Of a stretch of DNA of 63,718 nt, positions 3,041 through 45,070 are shown piece after piece (positions within the stretch are counted from its first letter, which is position 1; each line of letters starts with the position of its first letter). Position numbers and translations under genes: made by a program. The DNA comes from Eubacteriales bacterium (GTDB taxonomy: Bacteria > Bacillota > Clostridia > Oscillospirales > CAG-272), in the NCBI GenBank assembly GCA_045531485.1, contig JAZSEC010000061.1, positions 1-63,718 on the forward strand. Direction: 5' to 3'. The notes beneath the pieces were generated by a model. That model saw only the letters and a list, made by a program, of their open reading frames with translations. It was not told where the DNA came from and ran no database searches.

Positions 3041-3888
3041 CAGTCTGTTATAGACGCAGATCTGCTTTCCTCGGTATCCTCGGCCACGGAAGAGCCTTCG
3101 GCCGACCTTCTCTCGGACAGCTTTTTATTTATAAGCATATACACTCCGTAAAAGGCGGCAATGTATATAAGGAACAGAAGAATTACCATCATGGGATAAA
3201 GCACAGGATTCCCGCCTACGAGATTGTAGAGAATATCGTAAGGGGTACCGTCACCGCTGACAAGGAACATATAGTTGTAAGGAACTATGGTATTGCCGAT
3301 TCCCGCCAGACCGCAGAAGGCGAGAAGGATAGCGTATGTTATGGGAATGTTCCTTGGCTTCATGCTTTTCATACCCGATATGCCGATATAAACGGTAGTA
3401 AAGCCGGCGATGGTGTGGGTGAGGGCAGAGAAAAGATTGTCAAAGGAAATTACAGGATAGGCGGCGTAGTTCTGTCCTGCTCCATAGGTGCCAAGCACCG
3501 AACCCAACATGCCGAAGATAAAGACGAAATCAAGGCTTGCCTCCTTCAGCCTTCCCTTAGATAAGGCGGCAACCGGTATGGCGATAAGCTGTATACTGCA
3601 AAGGAAAAGGGGAAGCTCGTATAGAACTCTGTCCGGCTCACCGCTTCTGATACAGGATATTATAATTCTGATTATCTCGATAGAGTCGAGAATTACAGCC
3701 GTCCATATAAGAATCTTATTTTTCTTATCGTAGCTTTCGCCGCGGAATCTTCGCCCGAAATATATAGCAAGAATGATTGTCACAGCGAGAAATGAGCTGA
3801 CAAAAACCAGATGCTGCCAGGACAGAAAGCCCTCAGCAGGACGCTCGTATCCTCCAAAGCCGAAAAATTCTCTGAAAATTTCTTTCAT
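3040..3888 (-). CDS. Polytopic integral membrane protein, YwaF/TMEM164-like
   Basis: About 7 predicted TM helices and an LPLFLC motif typical of the YwaF (TIGR02206-type) family as I remember it. Assigned by eye only. Confidence 0.5.
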   Translation of the reverse strand: MKEIFREFFGFGGYERPAEGFLSWQHLVFVSSFLAVTIILAIYFGRRFRGESYDKKNKILIWTAVILDSIEIIRIIISCIRSGEPDRVLYELPLFLCSIQLIAIPVAALSKGRLKEASLDFVFIFGMLGSVLGTYGAGQNYAAYPVISFDNLFSALTHTIAGFTTVYIGISGMKSMKPRNIPITYAILLAFCGLAGIGNTIVPYNYMFLVSGDGTPYDILYNLVGGNPVLYPMMVILLFLIYIAAFYGVYMLINKKLSERRSAEGSSVAEDTEESRSASITD

Positions 3889-4852: not shown

Positions 4853-5090
4853 GTAATAACTGTGACGGAGACAGTAGTGAGGGTAAAAGCGTGCAGAGAA
4901 GCGGCGTTTGGTGCGAGCCGTAAGCGAGTAGCCCCCGACGAAGATCACTCCCGAGTTGCTCGGCCGAACTATAGTAGGCCCTGCCGTCTGCCGCGTTAAG
5001 GCGTAAGAGATGCAGAATTTATTCTGTAATTTCGGGTGGTACCGCGTGTTTTTCGCCCCGATGGTTTTTGACCGTCGGGGCTTTTTATTT
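4853..5090 (+). promoter_or_regulatory. T-box leader (Ile specifier)
   Basis: Conserved T-box sequence GGGTGGTACCGCG at 5034-5046. AGAGA/GTGA stem I elements are present. A candidate specifier ATC (4944-4946) is followed by a purine. The terminator stem GCCCCGATGG/ACCGTCGGGGC plus T-run lies at 5055-5090. The element is directly upstream of ileS. Confidence 0.85.
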
Positions 5091-37429: not shown

Positions 37430-38194
37430 ATGGACAACAATGCTTTAATTGACAGAACCGCTGACAGAGTTATGAGAATGCTTTCCGTGGACACGGATCA
37501 GATCTATAATCATGCAAAAAGAATGATGTGGTCGGTGATAGAATATAAGGAGCTGCAGATGCTTTACACCTGTGCGATGAAGGAGATCACCACCAAGCTT
37601 GAGATACTCGACACCGAGTTTAAGGTAAGGTATAAGAGAAATCCTATAAGCTCCATCACCCATCGCCTTAAAAGGACCGAGAGCATTATGGAAAAAATGG
37701 CCCGCCGCGGCTATCCAATGACTATTGAGAGCATAGAAAGCAACCTTAACGATATAGCCGGTGTCAGAGTGATCTGCACCTACGTTGACGACATTTATGC
37801 AATTGCTGACTCGCTTCTAAATCAGGACGACGTTACGCTGATAGCAAGGAAGGATTATATAAAAGAGCCGAAATCCAACGGCTATCGCAGTCTGCATCTC
37901 ATAGTATCCATACCGGTATTTCTCTCTGAGAGCAGAAAAAGCGTTAAGGTGGAGGTACAGATCCGTACCGTAGCTATGGATTATTGGGCTAGTCTTGAGC
38001 ATCAGATGAAATATAAAAAGGAAATACCAAACGCCGATGACGTTGGCAGGGAGCTTCGCCTGGTTGCCGAAACAATGGCAGAAACCGACAGACGTATGCT
38101 ACAGCTTCGCCGCCGCATTGAGCTTGCCGAGGACGTAAAGAGCGAGGAGGACGAGCTTTTGGATCGCCTTGGCAGATTAGGGCTTCCGCTGTAA
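37430..38194 (+). CDS. Small alarmone synthetase (RelP/RelQ-type GTP pyrophosphokinase)
   Basis: DIAGVRVICTY, KSNGYRSLHLIV and EVQIRTVAMDYWASLEH synthetase motifs. There is no hydrolase domain. Confidence 0.9.
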   Translation: MDNNALIDRTADRVMRMLSVDTDQIYNHAKRMMWSVIEYKELQMLYTCAMKEITTKLEILDTEFKVRYKRNPISSITHRLKRTESIMEKMARRGYPMTIESIESNLNDIAGVRVICTYVDDIYAIADSLLNQDDVTLIARKDYIKEPKSNGYRSLHLIVSIPVFLSESRKSVKVEVQIRTVAMDYWASLEHQMKYKKEIPNADDVGRELRLVAETMAETDRRMLQLRRRIELAEDVKSEEDELLDRLGRLGLPL

Positions 38195-38346
38195 AAATAT
38201 CTATTTACCCCTTGAAATCCGAGAAAAATAGGCTTATAATAGTAAATGCAACCGATAGTTGCATAATTGAAAACCAGAAAGTATGGAAAAACAAGTGGGT
38301 TTTTGCTACAATAAAGCTACAAAATCTACTTGAAGGGGAAAAACCT

Positions 38347-39033
38347 ATGACAATTGAAACTGCTAACAGATTATTTGAACTGAGGAAAAAGCACGGTCTC
38401 TCGCAGGAGGAGCTTGCCGAAAAGCTTGGCGTTTCTCGCCAGGCGGTGTCTAAATGGGAGAGAAGCGAGGCGTCACCCGATACGGATAACCTTATTGCCC
38501 TCGCTAAAATATACGACCTTTCTCTTGACGAGCTTATCTACGGTGAGAAGGAATGTACTGAAAATAATGATACGTCCAGCCAAAATGCTGACAAAAACGA
38601 GGAAAATACAGATAATAAGGATTCAGTAACTATTGAGGGCAAGCTGGTTTTGGATAAGCCTGACACCAAGAGCACAAAATTCTGGCTTGAAGTTCCTTAT
38701 CCTATCATCTGTACCGTTCTTTATCTTCTCTTCGGCTTCCTGGATATTCTCGGTGGCTGGCATCCCGCCTGGATAATCTTCGTGACCATACCCGTTTACT
38801 ATTCGCTGGTTGAGGCAATATATAAGAGAAAATTCTCGGTGTTCAATTATGCCGTGCTTACCGCGGTCATCTATCTTGTACTCGGCTGCTATTTCGGAAA
38901 TTGGCATCCGTCCTGGCTCGTTTTTATAACCGTTCCTATCTATTATCCTATCGCTACTGCACTTGATAAGAAGATTCACGGTGATGCATACGTCGAGGAT
39001 GATGACGATGATGAGGATGACGACGATGAATAA
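38347..39033 (+). CDS. XRE-family HTH protein with C-terminal 4-TM domain and poly-acidic tail
   Basis: LSQEELAEKLGVSRQAVSKWE HTH. Start moved to MTIETANRL (38347). The hydrophobic C-terminal half ends in EDDDDDEDDDDE. Confidence 0.75.
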   Translation: MTIETANRLFELRKKHGLSQEELAEKLGVSRQAVSKWERSEASPDTDNLIALAKIYDLSLDELIYGEKECTENNDTSSQNADKNEENTDNKDSVTIEGKLVLDKPDTKSTKFWLEVPYPIICTVLYLLFGFLDILGGWHPAWIIFVTIPVYYSLVEAIYKRKFSVFNYAVLTAVIYLVLGCYFGNWHPSWLVFITVPIYYPIATALDKKIHGDAYVEDDDDDEDDDDE

Positions 39034-39105: not shown

Positions 39106-40806
39106 TTATCTGTAGAAGGTGTTTCCGCCGATAAATTCACGCACCAAGGATGTGGGAGGAATTTCAAAATCCACCTCTGCCTCATGCACGAAGTTCAGCA
39201 CCTTTACGATAGATCTTACCTGGTCGTAGCACTCGTCGGAGGGAGATATCTCGGTGAGAAGCGGGAAAATGTGCTTCTTCAGTACGGCGATCTCATAGAG
39301 AGTGGAGCTGTTGAACATCACGTCGGCATTCTCCTGGAAGGGATAGATCCATCTCTCCTCGCCCGCTCTTACCGACTGCCACATATCGAGGGTGTGGGCA
39401 ACCGACGCACCGCGGGTTTCGTAATCTCTTACGATTCGGCGAAGAAGCCTCAGATAGCTTGAGGGAATACGGTTGTGGTTATCAAGGTTAAGGGGAAGCA
39501 GGGGTGTTACGAAAAGACGGAACACAAGGTTACTGTCAAGTCCCTCGGGAAGAAGGACGGGGTTCATAGCGTGCAGACCCTCTACGATAATAACCGATTT
39601 TTCATCAAGACGAAGCTTGTGACCAAGCCATTCGCGGCGACCACGCTTGAAATTAAAGGAAGGAAGCTCAACCTCCTCGCCTGAGAGCAGTGCCTGAAGA
39701 TGCTGACCGAAAAGATCGGTATCAATGGTGTTAATATGCTCAAGATCCACCTTACCGTCCGGGCCGGGAGCGATCTTATCACGGTCAACGTAATAGTCGT
39801 CAAGGCTCATAAGTATTGGCTTTTTACCGTGAACGCGAAGCTGAATGGAAAGTCTGTTAGCCGAGGTGGTCTTACCCGACGAGCTGGGACCTGCCAGCAT
39901 AACCGCCTTAACGCCTCTTTCGCATATCTGATCGGCAATAGCGGAAAATCTCTTCTCGTGGAGAGCCTCATTTATACGAACAAGCTCTCTGATCTTGCCG
40001 TTGTCAACAAGCTCGTTGAGGTCTGCTACGGTTTCGCATTCCATCAGCTCGCCCCATTCCTTACCCTCGTTACAAACTGCAAAGAGGTTAGGCTGCTCCT
40101 TATACTGAGAAACGCGGTCGGGACTCTTTTTCTGCGGGAATACGAAGATAAAGCCCTCCTCCGCCTCAAGAATATCGTAGGAACGGAGATATCCCGTGGA
40201 GGGTGCAACCTCACCGTAGAAGTAGTCGGCAAAATCGCCGTGGCTATACACGTCAAAGGTGGGCGTTGTACGGTAGCTGAGCAGACGTGCCTTATCCTCA
40301 AGGCCGTTGTCCTTGTAATATTTTATAGCCTCCTCGGTGGTGATCCTGTGACGGAGCAGGGGAATGTTCTCGTCAACGATCCTGTCCACTCTCTCGCGTA
40401 GCACGTCTGCAGAGAAATCCTCCGCACCGCTTACCTTTACGTACAGACCCGAGCCTACAGTAAAGCTCATGGTTGCCTCTGCATTGGGCCAGAGCTGCTC
40501 GATGGCAAGGAAAAGCACGAACTGTGCGGTTCTGGTATAAACCTCCGCACCCGCCGCATCTGTATATCTCACCAGGCGAACCACACCGTCAGAGCCGATC
40601 ATAGCCTCTCTTACGTATTCGGTATTATCCTTTACGTCCTTTTCGCGAAGGGGAATATAGTTAAGTGTAAAAATATCTCCGCCAATCTTTGCGGCAATAG
40701 GGTCGGTGGACAGCTTTCCCGTCACAAGACCCAGATCCTTTATCATATCAAGCAGGGATTGACCCGGCTTTACCGTAACCTGATGGCCATCTATAACAAG
40801 CTTCAT
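39106..40806 (-). CDS. Nucleoside (uridine-kinase/PRK family) kinase fused to N-terminal TGS/ThrRS-like domains
   Basis: Walker A (AGPSSSGKTT) and an LDDYY...IVEGLHA uridine-kinase-type core in the C-terminal half. The N-terminal segment is beta-grasp-like. It starts 3 nt after the upstream stop. Confidence 0.7.
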   Translation of the reverse strand: MKLVIDGHQVTVKPGQSLLDMIKDLGLVTGKLSTDPIAAKIGGDIFTLNYIPLREKDVKDNTEYVREAMIGSDGVVRLVRYTDAAGAEVYTRTAQFVLFLAIEQLWPNAEATMSFTVGSGLYVKVSGAEDFSADVLRERVDRIVDENIPLLRHRITTEEAIKYYKDNGLEDKARLLSYRTTPTFDVYSHGDFADYFYGEVAPSTGYLRSYDILEAEEGFIFVFPQKKSPDRVSQYKEQPNLFAVCNEGKEWGELMECETVADLNELVDNGKIRELVRINEALHEKRFSAIADQICERGVKAVMLAGPSSSGKTTSANRLSIQLRVHGKKPILMSLDDYYVDRDKIAPGPDGKVDLEHINTIDTDLFGQHLQALLSGEEVELPSFNFKRGRREWLGHKLRLDEKSVIIVEGLHAMNPVLLPEGLDSNLVFRLFVTPLLPLNLDNHNRIPSSYLRLLRRIVRDYETRGASVAHTLDMWQSVRAGEERWIYPFQENADVMFNSSTLYEIAVLKKHIFPLLTEISPSDECYDQVRSIVKVLNFVHEAEVDFEIPPTSLVREFIGGNTFYR

Positions 40807-40809
40807 ATC

Positions 40810-41109
40810 TTAAACCTTCTTTCCTTCATCTTCTTTATCGTATGCAGCTTCGGTTGCTAAGTTGCCTTTGCCGCCCGATTTTCTTTCTGCCAGTATCTGT
40901 CTTACCAGCTGAACACTGTTGATAGCAATAAGCACGGTGTTAAGCACGACCACGGGCATGGTATTGACAAAAATAGCGTATATAAGGCTTATCAGACCGC
41001 CCGCCATATTGATACCACGCAGCCACTTTATATCCTTCATAAAGAAGGAGAGAATAACCAGGGCGGTGCCAAAGTAACCGAAAATTTCAAGGGCAATTTT
41101 AGGATCCAT
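40810..41109 (-). CDS. 99-aa three-TM membrane protein (SemiSWEET/PQ-loop/YgjV-sized half-transporter, tentative)
   Basis: Three hydrophobic helices. GGAGG RBS. It is the first gene behind the purine riboswitch. The family was assigned by topology and size only. Confidence 0.45.
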   Translation of the reverse strand: MDPKIALEIFGYFGTALVILSFFMKDIKWLRGINMAGGLISLIYAIFVNTMPVVVLNTVLIAINSVQLVRQILAERKSGGKGNLATEAAYDKEDEGKKV

Positions 41110-41127
41110 AAAAACAAAAAACCTCCA

Positions 41128-41226
41128 AAAACAAAATCAACTACTCATTCGGTAGTCAACCATTTTCGGCGGTTTGTAGAAACGCTTGCCCATATCGCAA
41201 TCATATACCAGAAATCTAATTTAGCG
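41128..41226 (-). promoter_or_regulatory. Purine riboswitch, guanine-type (C at the specificity position), with terminator overlapping the aptamer
   Basis: Minus-strand RNA: GGUA-UAU-GAUUGC-GAUAUGG-GCAAGC-GUUUCUAC-AAACC-GCCGAAAAU-GGUUG-AC-UACC. L2 (GAUAUGG) and J2/3 (GUUUCUAC) are identical to the B. subtilis xpt aptamer as I remember it, and L3 matches at 7 of 9 positions. The terminator GGUUGACUAC-CGAAUGA-GUAGUUGAUU plus UUGUUUUU (41161-41127) reuses the P3 and P1 3' strands. Confidence 0.8.
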
Positions 41227-41232
41227 TAGGCT

Positions 41233-41261
41233 ATTATATCACATTACATACAAAATATCAA
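41233..41261 (-). promoter_or_regulatory. Sigma-A promoter of the riboswitch operon
   Basis: On the minus strand: TTGATA (41261-41256), 17-nt spacer, TATAAT (41238-41233). Confidence 0.65.
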
Positions 41262-41301: not shown

Positions 41302-41334
41302 AAATAAAAAGGGCAGAGCATAAAATCTCTACCC
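41302..41334 (-). terminator. Intrinsic terminator after the adhE-kinase operon
   Basis: Minus-strand GGGUAGAG-N8-CUCUGCCC followed by U5. Confidence 0.8.
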
Positions 41335-41399
41335 TTCATTTTGTTTATTTTGGTTAAAACCATTCACCGCCGAGCAGTTAAAATCTGTCGCTTATTATT

Positions 41400-42149
41400 T
41401 TACTGCCAATCAACAACGCCTACCCAGGACATAAGGAAATCACGCTCGTCGGGATTACCCTTTACCGACTGGGATGCGGCAACGATGGGCATCCATTTCT
41501 GTACGTACTGGCGTGCGGTGTCACTCTTTCTGCAGAAGAGGTCAAGGTAGCTCTCTGCCGCCTCATCGTCACCCGAAAGCCTGAAGGTCAGGTAGGTTCT
41601 CGCAGCATCTGCGGATGCATTTCCCTGGGTCGCATGTGCCCAGTCGATAACGTATGCTCTGTCATCCTCGGTAATAATGATATTCGAGGGACAAAGATCG
41701 CCGTGAAGAAGCTTATTGTGCTTAGGCATTCCCTCAAGGCGGGTGTGAAGCTCGTATCTTACGGTAGCATCAATGCTTGACGAGGAAATCTTTCTGTGCA
41801 TCTTGTCCTTAAGCTTGGTAAGCAGGGGACACTTATGAGCGTGAATAGCGAGCTGAATATCAACCAGCCTCTCGATATACTCATTTTTTCTTTCGGGATG
41901 CTCCTTCATCATCTGGGAAAGAGTCTTGCCCTCGATAAAATCTGTGGTGATCGCCCACTTGCCGTCTATTGTGTTTACTGCCAGAATGCTCGGAATATTG
42001 AGGCCGGTTTCCTCCACTCTTGCCTGGTTAAGTGCCTCGTTCAGCACGTCAGCCTTGGAGAAATCCTCGGCAAAAACCTTTATACATCTGTCGCCGTCGC
42101 GGTAGATCGTCTTATTTTTTCTTTCTGCAATAATATTGTCGAATTTCAT
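41400..42149 (-). CDS. Aminoglycoside/choline-kinase-like phosphotransferase (APH) family protein
   Basis: HGDLCPSNIII (HxDxxxxN catalytic loop) and VIDWAHA (metal-binding D). 249 aa. It starts 3 nt after the adhE stop. Confidence 0.75.
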   Translation of the reverse strand: MKFDNIIAERKNKTIYRDGDRCIKVFAEDFSKADVLNEALNQARVEETGLNIPSILAVNTIDGKWAITTDFIEGKTLSQMMKEHPERKNEYIERLVDIQLAIHAHKCPLLTKLKDKMHRKISSSSIDATVRYELHTRLEGMPKHNKLLHGDLCPSNIIITEDDRAYVIDWAHATQGNASADAARTYLTFRLSGDDEAAESYLDLFCRKSDTARQYVQKWMPIVAASQSVKGNPDERDFLMSWVGVVDWQ

Positions 42150-42152
42150 CTT

Positions 42153-44855
42153 TTATTCCTCTCTCTTGCCCTTTCTGTTGGTTTTCATAGCGGTCTTTGC
42201 GGTGTCAAATCTTACGCTTGTCATATGACTGTCGGGCATATCCTTTTCGGTGAAGTGCTTGCCGTAATATGCGTTAAGATACATCTGCTTGATCTCACTC
42301 ATAAGGGGATAACGGGGGTTTGCACCGGTGCACTGATCGTCGAATGCCTGCTCAACCATCTCGTCGAGGGTTTCGAGGAAGTAGCCTTCATCAACGCCGT
42401 AATCTTTGATGCGGGACTTGATGCCTACTCTTGCCTTAAGCTTGTTTATGGCAGAGATAAGGTTTTCTACCTTGTTTTCGGTCTTTCTGCCGCCGAAACC
42501 GAGGGCATCTGTAATCTCGGCATATCTCTCTGCGGTCTTGGGATGATCATACTGGGAGAAGGTACCCATCTTTGCAGGAGCATCGCAGGAGTTAAAGCGA
42601 ATAACCTCCTCAATCATAAGTGCGTTTGCTACGCCGTGGGGCAGGTGGTGGAAGGCACCAAGCTTATGTGCCATAGAGTGACATACACCGAGGAAGGCGT
42701 TGGCAAATGCCATACCTGCCTGGGTTGCGGCGTTCGCCATTTTTTCTCTTGCGATAACGTCGGTATCGCCATGCTCGTATGCTCTGGGCAGATACTCGAA
42801 TATGGTCTTAAGAGCACCGAGGCACAGACTGTCGGTGTAGTCGGTCGCCATCATGGAGGCGTAAGCCTCAAGTGCGTGGGTAACTGCGTCAATACCCGAC
42901 GCTGCGGTAAGGCCGCGGGGTGCAGACATGTGAAGGTCGGTGTCGATTATTGCCATATCGGGCATAAGCTCGTAGTCGGCAAGGGGATACTTGACGCCGG
43001 TCTGCTCGTCGGTAATAACTGCGAAGGGAGTAACCTCACTACCCGTACCTGCAGAGGTGGGGATGGCGATAAAGTATGCCTTCTCACCCATCTTGGGGAA
43101 GGTGTAGACCCTCTTTCTGATGTCAATAAATCTCATCGCCATATCCATAAAGTCTGCCTCGGGATGCTCGTAGAGAACCCACATAATCTTTGCCGCGTCC
43201 ATAGCCGAGCCGCCGCCGAGGGCGATAATGGTATCGGGGGCAAAGGCGGTCATCTGCTTTGCACCCTCCTTTGCATTTGCAAGGGTGGGATCGGGCTGAA
43301 CGCCCCAGAAGGATGCGTGTGCGATGCCGAGGCTGTCAAGCTTGTCGGTGATTGGCTTTGTATAACCGTTGTTGTAAAGGAATTCGTCGGTGACGATAAA
43401 TACTCTCTTAGAGCCTCTGACCGTCTTAAGCTCGTCGAGAGCAACGGGCAGACAGCCCTTTTTGATATAAATTTTCTCGGGAGCTCTGAACCAAAGCATA
43501 TTTTCTCTCCTCTCTGCCACGGTCTTGATGTTGATAAGGTGCTTTACGCCTACGTTTTCGGATACGCTGTTGCCGCCCCAGGAGCCACAGCCAAGGGTCA
43601 GCGAGGGAGCAAGACGGAAGTTGTAAAGGTCACCGATACCGCCCTGTGCCGCAGGTGTGTTTACAAGTATACGGCAGGTCTTCATTCGTGCCGCGAAGGC
43701 GTTAAGCTTTTCCTTCTCGGTCGCATCGTTGATATATATAGAGGAGGTGTGACCGTAGCCACCGTCGGCAACCAGTCGGTCAGCCTTGTCAAGTGCGTCG
43801 GCAAAGTCCTTCGCCCTATACATAGCCAGTACGGGAGAGAGCTTCTCGTGGGCAAATTCCTCAGAGATGTCAACGCTCTCCACCTCACCTATAAGGATCT
43901 TAGTTCCCTCGGGAACCTCGACGCCTGCAAGGGTGGCAATATTATATGCACTCTGTCCTACGATCCTTGCGTTAAGCGAGCCGTTTATGATGATGGTTTT
44001 TCTAACCTTGTCAAGCTCCTCGCCGTGAAGGAAGTAGCAGCCTCTGTTAGCAAACTCCTCCTTGACCGCCTCATACACCTCGTCAAGCACGATAACCGAC
44101 TGCTCGGAGGCACAGATCATTCCGTTGTCGAAGGTCTTACTGTGAATTACCGAGCTTACGGCAAGGAAAATATCAGCCGAGCCGTCGATGATTGCAGGTG
44201 TATTTCCCGCACCTACGCCAATGGCGGGCTTGCCGGAGGAGTATGCACTCTTTACCATTCCGGGACCTCCGGTGGCAAGGATAATGTCCGCCTCCTTCAT
44301 AACGGTGTTCGTCATTTCAAGAGAGGGGGCGTCGATCCAACCGATAATTCCCTCGGGAGCTCCTGCCTTAACGGCTGCCTCAAGCACCACCTTCGCTGCC
44401 GCGATGGTAGAGTTCTTTGCTCTGGGGTGGGGGCTGATGATAATACCGTTTCTGGTCTTAAGTGCCAGAAGGGTCTTGAATATTGCGGTAGAGGTGGGGT
44501 TTGTCGTAGGAATTACCGCCGCGATAACGCCGATAGGCTCGGCAATTTTCTTAATTCCGTAGGCCTTGTCCTCTTCGATAACACCGCAGGTCTTGGTGTC
44601 CTTATATGCGTTGTAGATATACTCTGCGGCATAGTGGTTTTTAATAACCTTATCTTCTACGATGCCCATGCCTGTTTCTGCAACCGCAAGCTTTGCAAGC
44701 GATATTCTCGCCTTGTCAGCCGCACTCGCCGCAGCGAGAAAGATTTTGTCTACCTCTTCCTGGGTGTAGGTGGCGAATTTTCTTTGTGCCCCTCTGATGC
44801 TACCGATAGCAGCCTCAAGGCTTTCGATACTGTCTACTGTCCTGTAATTTTCCAT
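42153..44855 (-). CDS. adhE: Bifunctional acetaldehyde-CoA/alcohol dehydrogenase
   Basis: 900 aa with an N-terminal ALDH domain and a C-terminal iron-ADH domain (GGGSAMDAAK, HxxxH). Start moved to MENYRTVDS (44855), which has a GGAGA RBS. Confidence 0.97.
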   Translation of the reverse strand: MENYRTVDSIESLEAAIGSIRGAQRKFATYTQEEVDKIFLAAASAADKARISLAKLAVAETGMGIVEDKVIKNHYAAEYIYNAYKDTKTCGVIEEDKAYGIKKIAEPIGVIAAVIPTTNPTSTAIFKTLLALKTRNGIIISPHPRAKNSTIAAAKVVLEAAVKAGAPEGIIGWIDAPSLEMTNTVMKEADIILATGGPGMVKSAYSSGKPAIGVGAGNTPAIIDGSADIFLAVSSVIHSKTFDNGMICASEQSVIVLDEVYEAVKEEFANRGCYFLHGEELDKVRKTIIINGSLNARIVGQSAYNIATLAGVEVPEGTKILIGEVESVDISEEFAHEKLSPVLAMYRAKDFADALDKADRLVADGGYGHTSSIYINDATEKEKLNAFAARMKTCRILVNTPAAQGGIGDLYNFRLAPSLTLGCGSWGGNSVSENVGVKHLINIKTVAERRENMLWFRAPEKIYIKKGCLPVALDELKTVRGSKRVFIVTDEFLYNNGYTKPITDKLDSLGIAHASFWGVQPDPTLANAKEGAKQMTAFAPDTIIALGGGSAMDAAKIMWVLYEHPEADFMDMAMRFIDIRKRVYTFPKMGEKAYFIAIPTSAGTGSEVTPFAVITDEQTGVKYPLADYELMPDMAIIDTDLHMSAPRGLTAASGIDAVTHALEAYASMMATDYTDSLCLGALKTIFEYLPRAYEHGDTDVIAREKMANAATQAGMAFANAFLGVCHSMAHKLGAFHHLPHGVANALMIEEVIRFNSCDAPAKMGTFSQYDHPKTAERYAEITDALGFGGRKTENKVENLISAINKLKARVGIKSRIKDYGVDEGYFLETLDEMVEQAFDDQCTGANPRYPLMSEIKQMYLNAYYGKHFTEKDMPDSHMTSVRFDTAKTAMKTNRKGKREE

Positions 44856-45070
44856 AATATTTTCTCCTGAATGGTTAATGTAATCTAATATAATGGTAGA
44901 AAAAACGGCATAACGTATGCACATTTATTCTTTTTTTTGCGAAAAAGGGAAGAATAAAACCTGGGATAAAGCAATAATAAGCTCACCGCCCGGGGATAAC
45001 GAAGCAACTGCCTTCAGCCTTCCCGCCGCCCTATTTCTTGCTTGTCTTGGTAACTACCCAAGAAATGTTA

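Follow-up and report, generated by a model that had tools for sequence, protein, structure and literature searches.

The subject of this work is a short operon on the reverse strand of a 63,718-nucleotide stretch of DNA from a Eubacteriales bacterium (contig JAZSEC010000061.1, positions 1 to 63,718). The whole of this 63.7-kb stretch is referred to as the window, and all window coordinates are counted within it. The operon consists of a purine riboswitch, a gene for a 99-amino-acid (aa) membrane protein (the small gene), and a gene for a 566-aa protein in which a region similar to threonyl-tRNA synthetase (ThrRS) precedes a nucleoside-kinase domain (the kinase gene). As read from the sequence, promoter, guanine-type aptamer, small membrane protein, and kinase belong to one transcription unit, whose features are collected in Table 1. 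The promoter lies immediately 5′ of the aptamer and 3′ of the terminator of the preceding APH-family gene (41308..41337). The junction between the two genes reads TAA-GAT-ATG, a spacer of exactly 3 nt, and both open reading frames (ORFs) and this gap were found where the initial annotation had placed them. In sequencing runs, the region was found in related strains only (at most 21% of words), with one weak RNA run.

Table 1. Features of the riboswitch-kinase operon and their positions in the window.
Feature	Position	Strand	Description
Sigma-70-type promoter	41233..41261	(-)	TTGATA, 17-nt spacer, TATAAT, extended -10 TG; 11/12 positions
Purine riboswitch aptamer	41133..41230	(-)	RF00167, guanine-I type, C74 (read from sequence)
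Expression platform	41127..41159	(-)	UUGACUAC / loop CGAAUGA / GUAGUUGA, then UUUUGUUUUU
Shine-Dalgarno GGAGG of small gene	41122..41126	(-)	partly paired by extended alternative stem
99-aa ORF (small gene)	40810..41109	(-)	three-helix membrane protein, borderline half-size YgjV/CBU_0592-like unit
566-aa ORF (kinase gene)	39106..40806	(-)	ThrRS-like N-terminus and Udk-fold kinase
Kinase N-terminal region, residues ~1-225	40132..40806	(-)	ThrRS N-terminal fold, editing residues replaced
Kinase C-terminal region, residues ~296-566	39106..39921	(-)	Udk/PRK-fold P-loop nucleoside-kinase domain, distinct subfamily

The aptamer matches the RF00167 covariance model over its full length (model positions 1-102) with 51.7 bits (gathering score 37; E = 7e-6), which bears out the riboswitch that had been proposed ahead of the 99-aa gene. 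It is the sole purine riboswitch of the window, as an Rfam scan returned no second one. The RF00167 gathering score is also reached in 12 of 15 related loci. A covariance model was built from 13 aptamer copies, and 40 copies were found in the window and 80 related genome loci; the aptamer lies upstream in 39 of these 80 loci and in 11 further metagenome loci (complete matches). The fold is well reflected in the variation among the 40 sequences: 85.4% of the cells are paired, compared with 24-44% when the partners are slid, and eight pairs change on both sides. P2 is paired in 90% and P3 in 98%, both with compensatory changes. P1 consists of four invariant base pairs (GGUA/UACC) only, the outer P1 positions being unpaired in most copies; for RF00167, the P1 of this aptamer group is unusually short.

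The nucleotides that contact the ligand are kept, namely, UAUA (U22), GUUUCUAC (U47 and U51), and GACUAC (C74), and the junctions contain no insertions. In purine aptamers, C74 confers specificity for guanine and U74 specificity for adenine, and C74 is invariant across a 13-sequence alignment. Several known variants were considered and set aside. In the 8-oxoG riboswitch variant U47 is deleted (PMC10556655), whereas it is present here. The guanine-II and xanthine-II variants carry insertions in J2-3, for guanine-II a single nucleotide together with core changes like those of xanthine-II (PMC9295807), whereas J2-3 (GUUUCUAC) and J3-1 of this aptamer show no insertions relative to RF00167. A 2′-dG variant is ruled out by the presence of U51 and an adenine aptamer by C74 in place of U74. 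With insertion-free junctions and with U22, U47, U51, and C74 in place, the aptamer therefore belongs to none of the known variants and, by its sequence, is of the guanine-I type. In four related loci (L027, L029, L047, and L052; e.g., L047 3600..3695), the aptamer carries the changes U48C and A73U (GCGUCUCUAC ... GUCUACC), which adjoin the ligand pocket and for which the terminator arm compensates (GUAGAC). These aptamers may represent a sub-variant with altered binding properties.

The direction of the switch can be predicted from the expression platform. The 5′ arm of the terminator is the aptamer's own P3-3′/J3-1/P1-3′ strand; because of this sharing, the terminator and the ligand-bound aptamer exclude each other, and the mutually exclusive folds lead to the prediction of an ON switch, in which bound ligand permits read-through. 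The overlap between terminator and aptamer and the U run, with a hairpin that includes ACUACC, are present in 40 of 40 copies, and the terminator arm covaries with changes in the aptamer (GUCUACC...GUAGAC in the four loci named above). Binding of guanine (or hypoxanthine) would allow P1 and P3 to form, the terminator would be blocked, and transcription would read through into the two genes. The element thus appears to be a transcriptional ON switch with a platform of the pbuE type, and the ON direction, which had been assumed in the initial annotation, is supported by all 40 copies. A close known counterpart is the adenine riboswitch of pbuE (ydhL) in Bacillus subtilis, which shares membership of RF00167 and a terminator 5′ arm that overlaps the 3′ strand of aptamer P3/P1. 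The two differ in that C74 rather than U74 is found here, that P1 has four invariant pairs, and that the gene product downstream is a kinase, with or without a protein of three transmembrane (TM) helices, whereas pbuE codes for an efflux pump of the MFS type. Guanine riboswitches are the textbook OFF switches of purine synthesis and uptake, and most of them turn uptake off.

The distribution of the operon was assessed by scanning one genome per GTDB species for the kinase, which yielded 80 loci. About 59 of these (59-92% identity) come from metagenome-assembled genomes of Oscillospiraceae, Eubacteriales, Faecousia, and Christensenellaceae; the remaining 21 are distant (36-41% identity) and come mostly from Bacteroidales, with two from Lachnospiraceae. 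Just 3′ of the kinase orthologue in the two Lachnospiraceae loci lies an RNase P RNA (L068 5570..5916; L069 5802..6213). When the loci are searched with a hidden Markov model (HMM) of the small protein, 26 have its gene directly upstream of the kinase, and none has a copy at any other place within about 4 kb. All 26 also carry the riboswitch, so that the order riboswitch, small gene, kinase is found in 26 of the approximately 59 clostridial loci. In 13 others (L018, L020, L022, L024-L026, L028, L029, L031, L034, L039, L056, and L059), the riboswitch stands 30-100 nt ahead of the kinase, the small gene is absent, and there is no room for one; the small gene hence separates switch and kinase in about two thirds of the riboswitch-bearing loci. 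Neither riboswitch nor small gene accompanies about 20 clostridial kinase orthologues and all the distant ones. A rough neighbour-joining tree of the kinases implies about four changes in the riboswitch state and about seven gains or losses of the small gene. Across the same contigs, the kinase is conserved at 84-94% identity and the small protein at 56-80%.

Distant representatives of the small protein were taken from a search of 1.8 billion proteins, and their contigs were inspected. Six of eight have the complete set of riboswitch, small gene, and kinase, often with overlapping ORFs; distant loci of this kind are L086-L091 and L093. At L093, the riboswitch (3131..3228) is separated from the small gene (3501..3749) by a 57-aa rubredoxin ORF (3262..3435). 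At L085 (1..344), the contig end truncates the riboswitch, behind which come a small gene (90 aa) and then a convergent gene, without a kinase, and at L092 neither riboswitch nor kinase accompanies the gene of the small protein. The spacing of 3 nt seen between small gene and kinase in the window is replaced elsewhere by overlaps of 4-17 nt.

The 13 loci in which riboswitch and kinase occur without the small gene, together with the approximately 20 orthologues that have neither element, indicate that the small gene is dispensable, and by the locus counts it is therefore the kinase that forms the core under regulation, to which the small gene is often added as a coupled accessory. The locus L085, with riboswitch and small gene alone, ties the small gene itself to the guanine signal. 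Judged from these arrangements, a common guanine signal controls both genes; they mostly occur coupled, but either can be the only gene behind the switch. The initial annotation had named a lack of synteny or of the riboswitch in related genomes as grounds for giving up its proposal of a riboswitch-controlled pair; synteny and riboswitch are found in 26 of the approximately 59 clostridial loci and in six of the eight distant ones. The part of the proposal that needs amendment is the partner of the riboswitch, which primarily accompanies the kinase, as the 13 loci without the small gene demonstrate.

The C-terminal half of the kinase protein had been described as a P-loop domain of the uridine-kinase/PRK type, and this description holds. 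Pfam PRK (PF00485) spans residues 304-501 with E = 3.5e-14, the sequence matches of this half in the Protein Data Bank (PDB) are Udk and UCK, and a profile comparison with human UCK2 gives E = 2.4e-18. An AlphaFold2 model, for which only homologues at least 84% identical were supplied, has a predicted local distance difference test score (pLDDT) of 54, at which domain-level Foldseek comparison is usable and the substrate pocket is not; against the Udk fold it gives E = 4e-5. The P-loop GPSSSGKTT is present, and the equivalents of UCK2 Asp62, Tyr65, and Arg119 are conserved together with the RLxRRxxRD lid. In fold, P-loop, these residues, and lid, the domain therefore resembles Udk, human UCK2, and the Udk of T. 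thermophilus.

The differences from these enzymes are equally consistent. The position of UCK2 His117 is occupied by Gly in at least 90% of the kinase family, and at the position of Tyr112 this clade has Phe, the other members having either Tyr or Phe. In the published structures of UCK2 and T. thermophilus Udk, His117 reads the 4-substituent of the pyrimidine, and the Tyr/His equivalent in the T. thermophilus enzyme sets the specificity for C versus U. The family carries, moreover, a 13-residue insertion before the lid, D-x-HN-x-IP, with invariant D, H, and N, a conserved C-terminal extension of about 50 aa, and the ThrRS-like module of about 260-290 aa. For the NCBIfam udk equivalogs TIGR00235 (cut-off 220.3 bits) and PRK05480 (cut-off 180 bits), the kinase reaches 82.8 and 87.8 bits, respectively, and close homologues bear the NCBI label "nucleoside kinase". 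The replacement of His117 by Gly argues against a canonical uridine/cytidine kinase. Taken with the scores below the equivalog cut-offs, it leans against canonical Udk, and a purine substrate is not established by these two observations. By its sequence features, the protein thus represents a separate subfamily within the Udk-fold P-loop nucleoside kinases.

The N-terminal half, initially likened to the TGS and second additional domain of ThrRS, proved to be of that kind. The ThrRS N-terminal region comprises the TGS and N2 editing domains. About 260 residues resemble it in fold (Foldseek E = 1e-8, with 1nyq, 1qf6, and 1tje), and phmmer finds ThrRS with E = 2e-7 over residues 69-214; Pfam TGS itself has no match in the kinase protein. 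The mitoribosomal protein mL39 is a further Foldseek match to the same region. Differences from ThrRS are the absence of the synthetase core and the replacement of the editing residues: in an alignment to 1tje with E. coli numbering, H73 is R, H77 is F, C182 is F, and H186 is V. The module is probably non-catalytic, as in mL39.

The small protein was modelled by AlphaFold2 with 56 homologues as three helices (3-23, 27-47, and 51-78) with a pLDDT of 70 overall and about 70-85 within the helices, in agreement with the three TM helices initially assigned to it. The charge distribution suggests a topology with the N-terminus outside and the C-terminus inside. Invariant or nearly invariant are F10, G11, Y12, G14, T15, W29, R31, N34, G37, S41, Y44, P52, N57, and N64, and several conserved polar residues, including N34, N57, N64, Y44, and W29, fall inside the predicted helices. 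At E ≤ 0.001 the family has 1,932 cluster representatives, and conservation at the protein level over these representatives rules out a spurious small ORF. Family members fall into two length classes, a short form of about 80-100 aa and a long form of about 180-210 aa. The latter adds to the 3-TM unit a soluble C-terminal domain of about 120 aa with a weak GNAT match (Acetyltransf_10, E = 3.5e-4); it is found in many representatives of about 200 aa (e.g., P0277, P0288, P0291, and P0319), and at L015 (3294..3917), L017 (3312..3908), and L035 (3346..3951) it still lies between riboswitch and kinase.

Its assignment to a known family is borderline. Pfam Imp-YgjV (PF10688) matches with 22.0 bits (gathering score 23.5; E = 1.6e-4), the match being restricted to profile positions ~90-157 of 159, that is, to the second half. 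All 56 homologues match Imp-YgjV at E ≤ 0.01, and some relatives pass the gathering score (25.7 and 26.2 bits). A weak match to CBU_0592 (PF26604) was also recorded. The full-length architecture of YgjV with two repeats is not found in the 99 aa and three helices of the small protein, which is half the length of E. coli YgjV (183 aa), and an hhalign comparison of the small protein's profile with E. coli YgjV yielded no significant match. As for SemiSWEET, NCBIfam SemiSWEET_2 gives E = 0.29 and 11.3 bits (cut-off 80), below membership, and in Foldseek the SemiSWEET crystal structures rank first at a level that is not significant (E = 1.5-2.5, TM 0.44-0.55, rmsd 7-8 Å). The Pro-Gln dipeptide of the PQ motif is absent from the 99-aa sequence, PDB sequence searches with the protein or its profile returned nothing, including no SemiSWEET, and when the profile was used to look for remoter relatives that have a name or an informative context, the close homologues again made up most of the list.

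What is shared with Imp-YgjV, CBU_0592, and SemiSWEET is a three-helix unit of about 75 residues, with scores at or below the gathering score. Of the SemiSWEET/PQ-loop/YgjV-type unit proposed at the outset, the Imp-YgjV/CBU_0592 side survives as a borderline match and the SemiSWEET/PQ-loop side as a weak resemblance. The small protein can be described as a borderline half-size relative of YgjV/CBU_0592. A half-transporter is a reasonable reading, which fits size, topology, and polar core, and it carries no proven membership. No function for YgjV is established in the literature searched, and none of the YgjV, CBU_0592, and SemiSWEET relatives has a proven link to nucleosides.

A precedent for a coupled facilitator and kinase exists in the Pnu transporters, which co-localise with kinases and work by facilitated diffusion and trapping (PMC5749112). 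As in PnuC/NadR and PnuT/thiamine kinase, the gene of a small facilitator, here a candidate, stands beside that of a cytoplasmic P-loop kinase under riboswitch control, and such a Pnu-like arrangement, with adjacency, ORF overlap, and a common riboswitch, characterises most of the loci with the small gene. The proteins themselves differ: no sequence relation to PnuC was detected, the small protein has three TM helices and PnuC seven, and the kinase has the Udk fold and not the NadR-RNK fold. Another precedent concerns the logic of the switch. Guanine-II ON riboswitches before phosphoribosyltransferase (PRT) genes in Paenibacillus are predicted to activate salvage when guanine is abundant (PMC9295807). 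Common to both is an RNA that senses guanine and is predicted to switch a purine salvage gene on; the differences are the J2-3 insertion, absent here, the kinase in place of a phosphoribosyltransferase, and the Oscillospirales host.

The overall explanation favoured here, with slightly less belief than disbelief, is an operon switched on by guanine in which a small facilitator and a kinase achieve uptake and trapping in the style of PnuC/NadR. The small protein would dimerise to give a small nucleoside facilitator, and the kinase would phosphorylate the imported nucleoside in the cytoplasm and so render its uptake irreversible. A free purine base might serve as a sign of available nucleic-acid breakdown products and would then induce a route of nucleoside salvage that is independent of phosphoribosyl pyrophosphate (PRPP). 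By analogy with the Pnu systems, transport and trapping is plausible, and either a purine ribonucleoside or one of the pyrimidine type may be its substrate. A more specific form of this explanation makes the kinase a Udk-fold purine ribonucleoside (guanosine/inosine) kinase, whose base pocket would be opened by the replacement of His117 by Gly, and, with a dimeric facilitator of the half-size YgjV-like kind, yields a guanine-induced, PRPP-independent route of purine-nucleoside uptake and trapping in gut Clostridia; in this specific form it is unlikely. Several observations weigh against the favoured explanation. It would be unusual for uptake to be induced by the class of compound that it ultimately yields. 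The similarity of the small protein to SemiSWEET is not significant (E = 1.5-2.5, TM about 0.5, rmsd 7-8 Å), its YgjV score of 22.0 falls below the gathering score of 23.5, and hhalign to E. coli YgjV is negative. The small gene is missing from 13 riboswitch-kinase loci, about 20 kinase orthologues have neither element, and the genes around the kinase are often housekeeping genes unrelated to it. The kinase model, moreover, is poor.

Trapping could also proceed without any purine substrate. The kinase would then serve the organism as its uridine/cytidine kinase, and the small protein, in the loci that have it, would be a facilitator of pyrimidine nucleosides. High guanine would induce a salvage of pyrimidines that needs no PRPP and lets the supply of pyrimidine nucleotides match that of purines. 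Such a balancing role is doubtful, at a grade just above that of the purine-specific route. It draws on the fact that the nearest characterised relatives are uridine-cytidine kinases with the same catalytic and lid motifs and on the identity of 84-94% over many contigs, as for a core enzyme. The orthologues without riboswitch, which stand alone amid unrelated housekeeping genes (metA, spoIID, scpA/B, and feoB), fit it as well. In Bacillus, guanine nucleotides cross-regulate pyrimidine genes through PyrR. The balancing role is opposed by the Gly at the His117 position in at least 90% of the family and the Phe at the Tyr112 position in this clade, by udk equivalog scores of 82.8-87.8 bits against cut-offs of 180-220, and by the additional invariant D-x-HN-x-IP insertion and the C-terminal extension. 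Nor is there a regulatory trace of it in the 16 riboswitch-less kinase loci scanned with Rfam, which contain neither a PyrR element nor any other leader.

The two remaining explanations separate the small protein from nucleoside uptake. In one, the small protein is a passive efflux channel that relieves the cell of surplus purine base or nucleoside, comparable to PbuE, and the kinase is co-regulated with it without being coupled mechanistically. The ON logic indeed matches pbuE, the known efflux case, the direction of a uniporter follows the gradient, and the locus without kinase (L085) and the 13 loci without small gene show each gene alone behind the switch. The tight translational coupling or ORF overlap in most loci speaks against efflux, as does the fact that six of eight distant representatives of the small protein still precede the kinase; the efflux response, furthermore, gives no reason for a kinase. 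This explanation is quite improbable. Less probable again, to the point of being very unlikely, is that the small protein transports nothing and instead anchors the kinase at the membrane or regulates it as a partner, for example, by docking the ThrRS-like module, the forms of about 200 aa being then part of a membrane-tethered enzyme. The unassigned function of the N-terminal module of the kinase would be accounted for in this way, the small protein has no significant similarity to any characterised transporter, and a large share of its relatives carry the soluble domain of about 120 aa with the weak GNAT match. A substrate path is, however, what the conserved polar N34, N57, N64, Y44, and W29 inside the helices would typically indicate, the nearest profile and fold neighbours are of the YgjV and SemiSWEET kinds, and an anchor sits poorly with the 13 riboswitch-kinase loci in which the small protein is dispensed with.

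The surroundings of the operon in the window include several further genes. Two genes away and convergent with it, a 254-aa small alarmone synthetase is encoded at 37430..38194 (+) (RelA_SpoT domain, 117 bits), an enzyme that consumes guanine nucleotides; this neighbourhood is common to close relatives only (cluster c17: L002, L006, L009, and L010). The ORF at 38212..39033 (+), convergent with the kinase gene, joins an HTH_3 (XRE) domain to a multi-helix membrane region and ends in DDDDDEDDDDE. On the other side, a 923-aa ORF at 42153..44924 (-) resembles alcohol/aldehyde dehydrogenases of the AdhE type, and the 1024-aa ORF opposite to it (41796..44870, +) was rejected as a shadow frame that is no gene. 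A T-box leader (RF00230, 105.5 bits) is located at 4853..5063 (+). Neighbourhoods beyond the gene pair, with metA, spoIID, scpA/B, feoB, adhE, and APH, gave no hint of a pathway.

The individual parts of the system are known, namely, RF00167, the pbuE-type platform, the Udk fold, the ThrRS-like module, and the YgjV-like unit. The initial annotation knew of no listing of the gene pair in a purine-riboswitch regulon, and none was found in the literature searched, whose coverage is incomplete: within it there is no description of a purine or guanine riboswitch with a uridine or nucleoside kinase and none of a TGS-uridine kinase fusion, and the combination of genes is not listed in two papers on riboswitch regulons and variants. 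A canonical guanine-I aptamer predicted to turn on the gene of a Udk-fold kinase, whether or not a 3-TM protein accompanies it, is thus apparently undescribed, in the sense of an absence of evidence only.

The arrangement recurs across many Oscillospirales and related gut Clostridia. If the interpretation is correct, it would represent a new branch of the purine riboswitch regulon, would bear on nucleoside salvage by gut anaerobes, and would offer an experimental handle, in the form of an inducer and an operon partner, on two protein families without known function. Should the uptake and trapping of purine nucleosides prove true, it would provide the first function for the half-size, YgjV/CBU_0592-like 3-TM family with its 1,932 representatives.

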